From contig CAVUCU010000005.1 of assembly GCA_963740085.1 (NCBI GenBank), forward strand, positions 224,001-288,000: a stretch of 64,000 nucleotides of DNA, given 5' to 3'. The stretch is from Nitrospirota bacterium. Lineage in GTDB: Bacteria > Nitrospirota > UBA9217. Under the pieces are notes generated by a model, which was not told the origin of the DNA, searched no databases, and was given only the letters and a program-made list of their open reading frames with translations. Shown here in pieces: positions 30,852 to 32,640 of the stretch. Within the stretch, counting starts at the first letter, position 1. Each line of letters opens with the position of its first letter. Made by a program: the position numbers and the translations under genes.

Positions 30852-30880
30852 AATATATAAGATAAGTCCATTATTGTCAA
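30852..30880 (-). promoter_or_regulatory. sigma70 promoter of the ffh operon
   Basis: Minus strand TTGACA-17 nt-TATATT. Confidence 0.7.
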
Positions 30881-30975
30881 GGGTTTTCTATCGGCAAGTC
30901 CCGCCGCACGAAAACGATCGGATTTCATGTCATTAAACAGAAACAATAAAGTCAGCAGACAAGCAGGAAATTATA

Positions 30976-31004
30976 TTGACTAAGGCTAAAGCTGCAATTA
31001 TAAT
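30976..31004 (+). promoter_or_regulatory. sigma70 promoter of the rhodanese gene
   Basis: TTGACT-17 nt-TATAAT. Confidence 0.75.
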
Positions 31005-31103
31005 ATCTTTAGTCCGTCACTTCTCGGGTTGCATTCCCTTTTTCAGAAAGCAAAGCTGCCGAAATGATTGAAAAAATCTGCCGCATCGCGAAAGGAAAAA
31101 AAT

Positions 31104-32519
31104 ATGTTGCATAAACGATTTATGAGCATCAGCTGCGCAGCGGCCATGGTTTTCGGTCTGGCAATGACCGCCGACCTGTCGGTTGCGCAGGAAAAAGCTG
31201 CCGTTATGACAGCGCAGCAGGCAAAACCAACCATCGCCAAATCGTGTACGAGTTGTCACCAGGCACAAGAAGGGAACCTCCGGGGTAATTTCGACAATGT
31301 TGCGTTTAAAAGCCGGTCCATCCAGCTCAAGATAGACGACAGCACTGAGATCCTCAAGTTCGATGAAAAAACCATCAAAGTAGTCACCGCAGACAAGACC
31401 GAAGACGCCGAGGCACTCAGGGACATCAAGAAAGGACACGAGGTCCGCATAGTATTTACGGAAAAGAACGGCATCAAGACCGCCTCTCTTGTCTCAATAA
31501 AACCGCCCATCAAGGTCGCTCCCCAGAAGCTCATGACCACTGCCGAGGTCGAAAAGCTCGTGGCCATGGGTCCGGAGAAAGGGAAATACACCCTCATCGA
31601 TGCACGCCCGGCGCCTCGGTTCATGGAAGGCTCGATCCCCACGGCGATCAACATCTCCTTTGCAGCTTTTGATAAAAACATCGACAAGCTTCCCAAGGAC
31701 AAGAATGCGCTCATCATTTACTATTGTGGTGGCGTCACCTGAGCAATGAGCCCTAACTCTGCCGGTAAGGCGGAGAAGCTCGGTTATGCCAACGTAAAAG
31801 TGTATCATGAAGGTCTGCCCGTATGGTCCAGGAACAACTACTCCGTTCTTTCTGCACAGTTCCTCAAGGAGGCATGGATCGACAAGGATATCCCCTCGGT
31901 GATCCTCGATATCCGCCCGGTTGATGTTGCCAAAAGAGGCTTCATCAAGGGTGCCGTATCCCTTCCCGCAGCGGATGTTGAAAATTCCCTCGCCAGGTTC
32001 CCTGCCAAGGAATTGAAACCACCGATCATCATCTACAGCGATGCAAGCGGCGACGACGCGGTCAAGGCTGCGAAGGCCATCATCGCCGGAGGATACAAGA
32101 ACGTAAAGATCTTAACCAGTGGAATATCCGGATGGCAGGCTGCAAAATACCCCCTCGACTCCGGGAACTTGAATGTCACCATGGCCTATGTGCCCAAGCC
32201 CAGGCCGGGTTCAATGCCAATCGATGAGTTCAAGAAGATCGCTTCTGCGACCCCGGCCGATGTCCTGATCCTCGATGTGCGGGACAGGGACGAGGCGAAT
32301 GCCGGCATGATCCAGGGGGCGAAACTGGTGCCTGATGAAGAAATCCTCGACCGCCTGGCAGAGATCCCAAAGGACAAACAGATCCTCACGTATTGCTCGA
32401 CAGGCGTGCGCGCGGAGATGGCGTACCACAAGCTGAAGGAGAGAGGCTACAGGGTAGCCTTCCTGAACGCGATCATGGAGATCGATAAGGAAGGGAACTT
32501 CAAGATCGAAAAACCGTAG
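31104..32519 (+). CDS. exported c-type heme (CxxCH) multi-rhodanese sulfurtransferase with probable selenocysteine (TGA 31740-31742)
   Basis: ORFs 31068..31742 and 31746..32519 share a frame and are separated only by TGA in YYCGGVT*AMSP; signal peptide, CTSCH, three rhodanese domains (last with YCSTGVR); SECIS-like hairpin follows the TGA. Confidence 0.85.
31748..31781 (+). promoter_or_regulatory. bacterial SECIS-like hairpin
   Basis: Lower stem GAGC/GCTC, upper stem CTCTGCC/GGCGGAG, apical loop GGTAA beginning 21 nt after UGA. Confidence 0.75.
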
Positions 32520-32544
32520 CGCATTGTCAAAGCGCTCTTTTCCG

Positions 32545-32576
32545 GCCCCGGATGGTGAATGCCTCCGGGGCTTTTT
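32545..32576 (+). terminator. intrinsic terminator
   Basis: GCCCCGGA...TCCGGGGC-TTTTT. Confidence 0.75.
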
Positions 32577-32640
32577 GCGTCCATTGGATGAGAAAACGCG
32601 GGACATGATCCATAACGTGGACATTCCACAATGGCAATCG

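Follow-up and report, generated by a model that had tools for sequence, protein, structure and literature searches.

In a 64,000-nucleotide stretch of the Nitrospirota bacterium assembly GCA_963740085.1 (contig CAVUCU010000005.1, positions 224,001 to 288,000; referred to here as the window), we identified, with very high confidence, a single gene for a real selenoprotein at positions 31104 to 32519. Comparison with related genes shows that the in-frame UGA codon at 31740 to 31742 would be decoded as selenocysteine (Sec) by the SelA, SelB, SelD, and tRNA-Sec of the genome, and that a hairpin at 31748 to 31781 would direct this decoding. The reading is based on the occurrence of Cys in homologs and of TGA in relatives, on the covariation of the hairpin, and on the presence of the Sec machinery. 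Taken as a whole, the product is probably an exported selenoprotein that carries a heme and handles sulfane sulfur in the periplasm with a Cys208/Sec213 redox pair.

Decoding of an in-frame UGA as selenocysteine

Translation table 11 calls two open reading frames (ORFs) that lie in the same frame with only this TGA between them. A first-pass annotation of the window had proposed that they be joined by read-through, and recomputation from the sequence returned the same protein of 471 amino acids (aa), with U213 in YYC-GGVT-U-AMSP (wider context, IIYYC-GGVT-U-AMSPNSAG). Its prediction that standard annotation would split the gene is borne out, since table 11 yields the two halves and a protein search retrieved full-length Cys forms and no full-length Sec form. 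This search found 1,576 proteins at E values of ≤0.001; in all of the best 120 of the 1,576, which were analyzed, position 213 is Cys and the protein is encoded by a single ORF (451 to 483 aa). Database fragments of 251 to 252 aa that begin directly after the Sec site were also observed; they look like split annotations of Sec forms.

Related genomes contain TGA in the same place. In 61 such genomes, 20 of the 23 matches listed hold exactly one in-frame TGA; apart from the window's own copy, these represent 19 further TGA copies in 18 related genomes. All 20 copies share one alignment column and the motif C-x-G-x-T-U-[AG]-[ML]-S-P. Of the three listed matches without TGA, one (L033) is a paralog with TGC, one is a fragment of the C terminus that leaves the site uncovered, and one is a protein of 32% identity. 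Among 80 named loci of species-representative genomes, the codon is TGA in 16, all labeled Nitrospirota, Nitrospirae, Nitrospiraceae, or Nitrospiria, and TGC or TGT in 64, which belong to Geobacterales, Betaproteobacteria, and a few other groups. When 201 genomes were sampled evenly across the phylum, 44 of them gave a match (E ≤ 1e-50); 44 of the 47 matches listed have one in-frame TGA, at identities down to 33% and in at least nine families. Three public runs of one study, perhaps made on the source sample, have contigs that are identical to the window at the three nucleotides of the codon, and none of these contigs contains the TGC or TGT that an assembly error could have hidden.

In the general model of bacterial selenocysteine insertion sequence (SECIS) elements, a stem-loop lies just 3' of the UGA at a set distance, with a G early in the apical loop. 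The stems, loop, and 21-nt distance of the hairpin are all as the first-pass annotation had described them (Table 1). Two observations weigh against its significance: the single-sequence fold is unexceptional (minimum free energy, -19.1 kcal/mol; z = -1.73; an equally good fold in 12 of 200 shuffles), and Rfam placed no family at its gathering score in the window (near the hairpin, chance-level matches only, with E values up to 10), although Rfam may lack a bacterial SECIS model. The significance of the hairpin derives from its conservation and covariation rather than from the single-sequence fold. In the alignment of the 20 TGA copies, 90.9% of the cells are paired, compared with 30 to 60% when the 3' partners are slid by one to three columns. 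Changes on both sides are seen in pairs 23-37, 24-36, and 25-35 (i.e., three of the seven upper-stem pairs), and the covariation score was reached by none of 500 shuffles. The hairpin is absent from the TGC paralog.

The genome encodes selA, selB, and selD, all of which score over curated cutoffs; selA adjoins selB, and selD (C1:750805-751725) itself has an in-frame TGA. A tRNA-SeC gene (tca) is located at C3:198420-198518. The first-pass annotation had suggested looking for Cys, or for TGA plus a conserved hairpin, at this site in homologs and for selA, selB, selD, and tRNA-Sec in the genome, and each of these was found. The genome also contains genes for two roughly 890-aa Fdh-like molybdopterin enzymes (C5:408716-410659 and C5:415279-416763), each with TGA in CARL-U-HS and a SECIS-type hairpin. 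These hairpins (GGUGGCC-GGGCU-GGCCGCC and GGCC-GGUCU-GGCU) have in common with the present one (CUCUGCC-GGUAA-GGCGGAG) a 5-nt loop that begins with GG and is closed by GCC/GGC, which fits a single SelB that would read all three genes.

The proposal that the TGA really terminates translation, or that it stems from misassembly or from decay into a pseudogene, with two separate products or none, agrees with the two ORFs of table 11 and with the single promoter-like site ahead of 31104 (the pattern scan lists none before the ATG at 31746), but it is close to refuted and highly improbable, given that the break falls within the active-site loop of a rhodanese domain, that dozens of genomes have a same-column TGA at identities down to 33%, that the hairpin covaries, that the ATG at 31746 has no Shine-Dalgarno sequence ahead of it, and that the public-run contigs carry the TGA.

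The selenoprotein gene stands alone on the plus strand. It is preceded by the minus-strand genes ffh, rimM, trmD, rplS, and rnhB and followed by genes for a protein that matches no Pfam family, a phosphoesterase, and a phosphofructokinase (PFK). The promoter and terminator that the first-pass annotation had assigned to the gene were both located. The terminator-like hairpin, which is followed by UUUUU, has a z score of -2.23 (5 of 200 shuffles fold equally well); a pattern scan with a loop limit of 8 nt missed it, and folding recovered it. Two promoter-like sites, each matching 11 of 12 positions, stand back to back at 30852 to 31004: the minus-strand site (30880-30852) faces ffh, and its plus-strand partner faces the selenoprotein gene.

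Table 1. Features of the selenoprotein gene and its product (window coordinates)
Feature	Position	Strand	Remarks
Upstream ORF	31068/31104..31742	+	Upstream half; ends at TGA 31740-31742
Downstream ORF	31746..32519	+	Downstream half; same frame as upstream ORF, with only TGA 31740-31742 between
Full coding sequence, 471 aa	31104..32519	+	TGA 31740-31742 read as Sec; stop TAG 32517-32519
UGA Sec codon, residue 213	31740..31742	+	Same-column TGA in relatives
Shine-Dalgarno-like AAGGA	31092..31096	+	7 nt ahead of ATG 31104; from sequence
Sigma-70-like promoter TTGACT-17-TATAAT	30976..31004	+	11/12 positions; consensus match only
Intrinsic-terminator-like hairpin plus UUUUU	32544..32577	+	Hairpin of 29 nt, 32544-32572; by folding
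SECIS-type hairpin	31748..31781	+	Lower stem GAGC/GCUC, upper stem CUCUGCC/GGCGGAG, loop GGUAA
Hairpin lower stem	GAGC 31748-31751 with GCTC 31778-31781	+	Pairing read from sequence
Hairpin upper stem, 7 bp	CTCTGCC 31757-31763 with GGCGGAG 31769-31775	+	Pairing read from sequence
Hairpin apical loop GGUAA	31764-31768	+	Begins 21 nt after UGA
Signal peptide, residues 1-28	31104..31187	+	K4/R5, hydrophobic core, SVA/QE cleavage site; judged from sequence alone
CTSCH c-type heme-attachment motif, residues 48-52 (C48, C51, H52)	31245..31259	+	Putative heme site
OB-fold beta domain, about residues 55-135	31266..31508	+	Domain model
Rhodanese domain 1, loop C208-GGVT-U213	31536..31853	+	Pfam stretch 158-243; C208 at 31725-31727
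Rhodanese domain 2, inactive type without catalytic Cys	31866..32159	+	Pfam stretch
Rhodanese domain 3, canonical loop C431-STGVR	32211..32483	+	Pfam stretch; C431 at 32394-32396

Domain architecture and the putative heme site

The architecture proposed in the first-pass annotation (i.e., a signal peptide, the CTSCH motif, a Cys-less second rhodanese domain, and a third with YCSTGVR) agrees with our domain assignments and coordinates. The signal peptide resembles those cleaved by signal peptidase I, and homologs have comparable N termini. Pfam PF00581 matched three rhodanese stretches with 145.9 bits against a cutoff of 22.2, which places the protein in the rhodanese superfamily; no NCBIfam model exceeded its own cutoff on the 471-aa protein. 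Residues 250 to 360, which include rhodanese 2 and its IIIYSD segment, contain no Cys. Among 121 aligned sequences, Cys208 is conserved in 120 and Cys431 in all. Alignment of the rhodanese 1 and 3 loops places Sec213 at +5 from Cys208 (i.e., at the position of Arg436 in rhodanese 3), and the +5 residue of a rhodanese loop stabilizes the persulfide. This pair of Cys208 and Sec213, which opens and closes the six-residue active-site loop, suggests redox activity that goes further than transfer.

AlphaFold2 modeled the three rhodanese domains of the whole protein well and the first 100 residues poorly (mean pLDDT, 75.6). When residues 40 to 139 were modeled alone, an OB-fold barrel with the CxxCH on a preceding arm was obtained (pLDDT, 84.3; pTM, 0.72). 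Foldseek ranked CusF and SilF, two periplasmic Cu/Ag chaperones, as the best matches of this domain (E value, 1.7e-3; TMt, 0.64 to 0.71), and VIA-align gave Z scores of up to 8.4 against many OB folds, an arrangement that the tool itself notes as common. Both fold searches returned OB folds only, with no heme-binding domain among them. Solved structures match the rhodanese part only (1yt8, EanB, YnjE, and 6mxv).

We consider heme binding at the predicted c-type site likely. The CxxCH lies in an exported protein, and the genome encodes a maturation system, as indicated by ResB (326 bits) and 29 ORFs with at least four CxxCH motifs. In the 121 aligned sequences, C48 is present in 120 and both C51 and H52 in all 121; in P0055, which has lost the first Cys, the "CH" is kept. 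A distant ortholog (L031; G048:C1:44505-45773; 49% identity; TGA form) has C-S-L-P-G-C-H, a CX4CH-type motif, and Asn at the position of His442. Since the "CH" survives both the change of spacing and the loss of the first Cys, the pattern suits heme attachment better than a CxxC dithiol.

Several observations weigh against a heme. The N terminus matches no cytochrome Pfam family and no cytochrome fold, and its region contains no conserved His or Met. It does not appear to be a cytochrome fold, because its best model and fold matches are OB folds, with the CxxCH on an arm. Three residues of rhodanese 3 (i.e., His442, Met439, and Met402) track the CxxCH; His442 occurs in 125 of 129 sequences with the motif and in 1 of 94 without it. 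However, three independent pairs differ in the CxxCH and none differs at 442, four distant CxxCH-bearing relatives have Asn or Tyr at 442, and the G048 copies have Asn or another residue there. As the independent pairs never differ at 442, the association represents a single evolutionary event, and His442 was rejected as the distal heme ligand and kept only as a weak idea.

In a rival reading, the selenoprotein would use its CxxCH as a redox dithiol or as a Cys2His metal site on a CusF-like OB domain, and Cys208 and Sec213 would be its partners in the exchange of electrons or of metal or chalcogen atoms. The OB fold with CusF and SilF as its closest Foldseek matches, the lack of any matching cytochrome Pfam family, and the failure to find a conserved distal His or Met near the motif would all agree with such a site. 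Nevertheless, we regard it as improbable. The "CH" is invariant (121 of 121) and outlasts CX4CH spacing and the loss of the first Cys, the genome from which this exported protein comes has ResB and no fewer than 29 multiheme ORFs, and the OB-fold Z scores of 7 to 8 reflect a common arrangement.

Gene context and a candidate role in sulfur metabolism

The genes around the window's own copy give no functional clue, but those around the Cys-form homologs do. Psr/Phs-like genes occur within 4 kb of 49 of the 64 Cys-form loci and, by type, comprise the PsrA-like molybdopterin subunit (46), 4Fe-4S proteins (36), and NrfD (33 and 7). In Geobacterales, 17 Cys loci also encode a DUF3373 outer-membrane barrel, 19 a small protein, and 9 a 7-heme cytochrome. 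The partner molybdoenzyme most resembles PhsA, a thiosulfate reductase (518 bits; cutoff, 694), and the 7-heme cytochrome beside the Cys forms is closest to the tetrathionate-reductase octaheme (Otr) family. Several Geobacterales loci (L075, L078, L092, and others) contain a conserved cluster with a polysaccharide deacetylase, a DUF3373 barrel (~660 aa), a small protein (~110 to 140 aa), the Cys-form heme-motif triple rhodanese, a 7-heme Otr-like cytochrome, a TAT-exported PhsA-like molybdoenzyme, and NrfD. This cluster resembles the ext clusters discussed below and is built differently; no description of it was found in the literature searched.

The genome of the window provides further clues. 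DsrA scores over its cutoff, and a homolog of MccSep/ExtKL (C1:787709-788989; L144/L146) reaches 584 bits with NF040886 (cutoff, 250); it has five CxxCH motifs and its own in-frame TGA in AGHAIPDG-U-PTPNR. MccSep is a pentaheme selenoprotein identical to ExtKL; experiments have established that it reduces polysulfide and is essential for sulfur respiration, that a Cys serves as a heme ligand in it, and that its catalysis requires the Sec (PMC13510729). The homolog stands alone on another contig, where it adjoins genes for a GGDEF/PAS protein and a response regulator. In the phylum sample, MccSep was found in 34 of the 44 genomes with the rhodanese protein and in 25 of the 157 without it (odds ratio, 18; Fisher p = 4e-14).

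On the basis of the Psr/Phs context of the Cys homologs, MccSep, DsrA, and this co-occurrence, we favor, with moderate confidence, a role as a periplasmic sulfane-sulfur handler in sulfur-compound respiration or disproportionation. The first-pass annotation had left the choice between sulfur and selenium transfer open; the context of the Cys homologs favors the former.

A number of findings count against this role. Psr-like neighbors were found at none of 35 Sec loci, and ffh adjoins 26 of the 35 in Nitrospirota (the loci were not de-duplicated in either count). No close PsrA was found in the window's genome (where the best matches, at 26 to 27% identity, are the two ~890-aa Fdh-like genes with TGA), and a search with the Geobacter 7-heme cytochrome as the query revealed no Otr-like cytochrome in it. 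The co-occurrence statistic for MccSep ignores relatedness, and in one family (f16) the rhodanese protein occurs in 5 of 10 genomes and MccSep in 1 of 10, never in the same genome. Among the candidate partner genes, the single DUF3373 barrel of the genome (C4:62929-64116; L126/L127; 442 bits) has no CxxCH-bearing ORF among its neighbors.

For a sulfane-sulfur handler, the substrate would be polysulfide, thiosulfate, or persulfide in the periplasm, and the persulfide would be carried on Cys431, Cys208, or both. Sec213, in the place where ordinary rhodaneses have Arg, Thr, or Ser, would attack the persulfide or form a Cys-S-Se-Sec bridge; domain 1 would thereby be a redox site and not a plain carrier. 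The heme, if present, might pass electrons to or from the Cys208/Sec213 site. The likely clients would be the Psr/Phs-type molybdoenzymes in Proteobacteria and Geobacterales, whose operons contain the Cys form, and, in the window's genome, perhaps MccSep, the polysulfide reductase whose gene lies elsewhere.

A more specific version is tentative and, in all its parts together, rather unlikely: the protein would be no passive carrier of sulfur but a novel type of heme-coupled Cys-Sec persulfide/polysulfide oxidoreductase on a rhodanese loop, a partner of MccSep, and ancestrally a Sec form. Sec213 would resolve the Cys persulfide via a selenenylsulfide, which the N-terminal heme would re-reduce, and the enzyme would form with MccSep a periplasmic sulfur-reducing or -disproportionating module of Nitrospirota. 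The ancestral Sec would have been swapped repeatedly for Cys as the gene entered Psr/Phs operons in Proteobacteria and Geobacterales.

Oxyanions of selenium, tellurium, or arsenic are unlikely substrates of this selenoprotein, which in that case would reduce selenite or deliver selenium, a role that has been proposed for the Geobacter ext cluster. The idea draws on the clustering of the rhodanese-like ExtH with ExtI, a porin required for selenite and tellurite reduction in Geobacter sulfurreducens (PMC5877670), and on the relationship of Psr/Phs-like molybdoenzymes to arsenate and selenate reductases, visible here as weaker NCBIfam matches. However, the partner enzyme scores far higher with PhsA (518 bits) than with ArrA (174 bits) or YnfE/YnfF (183 to 192 bits), ExtKL has since turned out to be the polysulfide reductase described above, and DsrA and MccSep are both encoded in the window's genome.

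Relatives, evolution, and significance

Rhodanese selenoproteins are already known, as the first-pass annotation had correctly stated. A 2026 review catalogues five forms: form 1 (PF00581, UxxS, WP_010941598.1), which is credited to the bSECISearch study; forms 2 and 4 (UxxG); form 3 (NF041203, CxU); and form 5 (TsoB, UxxxxU). The passages on form 1 mention neither a heme nor an OB domain nor three rhodanese domains (PMC13188914). Compared by motif only, the U213-A-M-S216 of the window's protein fits the UxxS of form 1 in a PF00581 domain. A 37%-identical Geobacteraceae paralog (L122/L123) has Sec in the same column and its own hairpin, but it is a lipoprotein (LAGC lipobox) without CxxCH, whereas the window's protein has a signal-peptidase-I leader and CTSCH. 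Judging by the accession range, form 1 (WP_010941598.1) probably denotes this paralog. Of 51 Geobacteraceae genomes, 6 contain paralog-type TGA copies; an in-frame stop is missing from each of the 19 weaker matches listed in this family, at 32 to 38% identity to the paralog query (the range of the two heme-type copies of genome G061).

The protein differs from the other catalogued forms. With NF041203 (the rhodanese-related LYCAU protein of form 3, with CxU), it scores 74.7 bits against a cutoff of 115 over residues 260 to 352 (domains 2 and 3); it has no CxU and is not a member. TsoB (NF045694), a rhodanese/DsbD fusion-like protein, resembles it in the x4-spaced chalcogen pair of the rhodanese loop, which here is C-x4-U, with Cys at the first position. 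The match to TsoB amounts to 62.7 bits (residues 139 to 251) against a cutoff of 805, and Pfam detects no DsbD-like part. The multi-rhodanese proteins YnjE of Escherichia coli (3ipo/2wlr), 1yt8, and EanB (6ktv) are similar by Foldseek (E values, 1.5e-10 to 3.4e-13; 16 to 20% identity), and profile matches were obtained as well, but they lack Sec, a Cys-x4-Cys loop, CxxCH, and the OB domain. Lipoprotein relatives of 386 aa in Geobacter-type bacteria (e.g., Trichlorobacter lovleyi; P0134, P0147, and similar proteins) were observed in which the OB domain is absent and a C-x4-C-P-F-S loop is kept.

Two known sulfur systems offer functional comparisons. Sud of Wolinella succinogenes is a periplasmic polysulfide-sulfur transferase with a single, Cys-only domain and no known heme. 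The likeness to it is functional only (i.e., a rhodanese in the periplasm that serves a polysulfide reductase of the Psr type), and we claim no membership; Aussignargues 2012 reportedly describes rhodaneses that supply sulfur to sulfur reductases. The Geobacter extHIJKL cluster encodes the rhodanese-like lipoprotein ExtH (GSU2940; ~49 kDa), the porin ExtI, the small ExtJ, and ExtKL (PMC5877670, PMC6148476). By description and context alone, the likeness lies in an exported rhodanese-like protein tied to a porin, a small protein, and a multiheme cytochrome, just as the Cys forms of Geobacterales lie beside the DUF3373 barrel, the small protein, the 7-heme cytochrome, and the PhsA-like enzyme. 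Unlike ExtH, the window's protein has no lipobox and no ext-type neighbors. The Geobacteraceae Sec paralog was rejected as the ExtH of an ext cluster, as it adjoins genes for an M16 peptidase and pyr genes. Among the literature listings and the cited passages, there was no description of a heme-motif rhodanese or of this Nitrospirota protein. What is new here is the combination of a signal peptide, CxxCH, an OB fold, and the C-x4-U loop; rhodanese selenoproteins themselves have already been catalogued.

In a quick maximum-likelihood tree of 108 sequences (26 Sec and 82 Cys forms; root not established), Sec and Cys forms interleave. The tree requires at least four Sec/Cys changes, three of which are forced by starred branches, and none of 500 label shuffles required so few. 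One group consists of 17 Nitrospirota Sec forms. The window's protein nests among three Cys forms (99% SH-aLRT), which are its closest relatives (72 to 76% identity). The three outgroup paralogs are all Sec forms, and the position of the hairpin is identical in every Sec form. A Sec ancestor whose Sec repeatedly gave way to Cys would be the simpler story.

The gene is present in 44 of the 201 sampled genomes of the phylum, nearly always in its TGA form, and its product is almost certainly a genuine, widespread, and misannotated selenoprotein. Because the TGA form prevails, the protein search gave no full-length Sec entry, and no NCBIfam model exceeds its cutoff, proteomes and metabolic reconstructions probably list two meaningless fragments in its place; the annotations affected are those of sulfur-cycling groundwater and sediment bacteria. 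The interleaving of the two forms provides a clean case for studying when Sec is kept or replaced. The function of the protein is plausibly tied to periplasmic sulfur reduction. If so, it would be the second sulfur enzyme after MccSep to combine heme, Cys, and Sec, with its Cys/Sec pair at the ends of a rhodanese loop, and it could be tested as a candidate participant in the periplasmic part of sulfur reduction and disproportionation.

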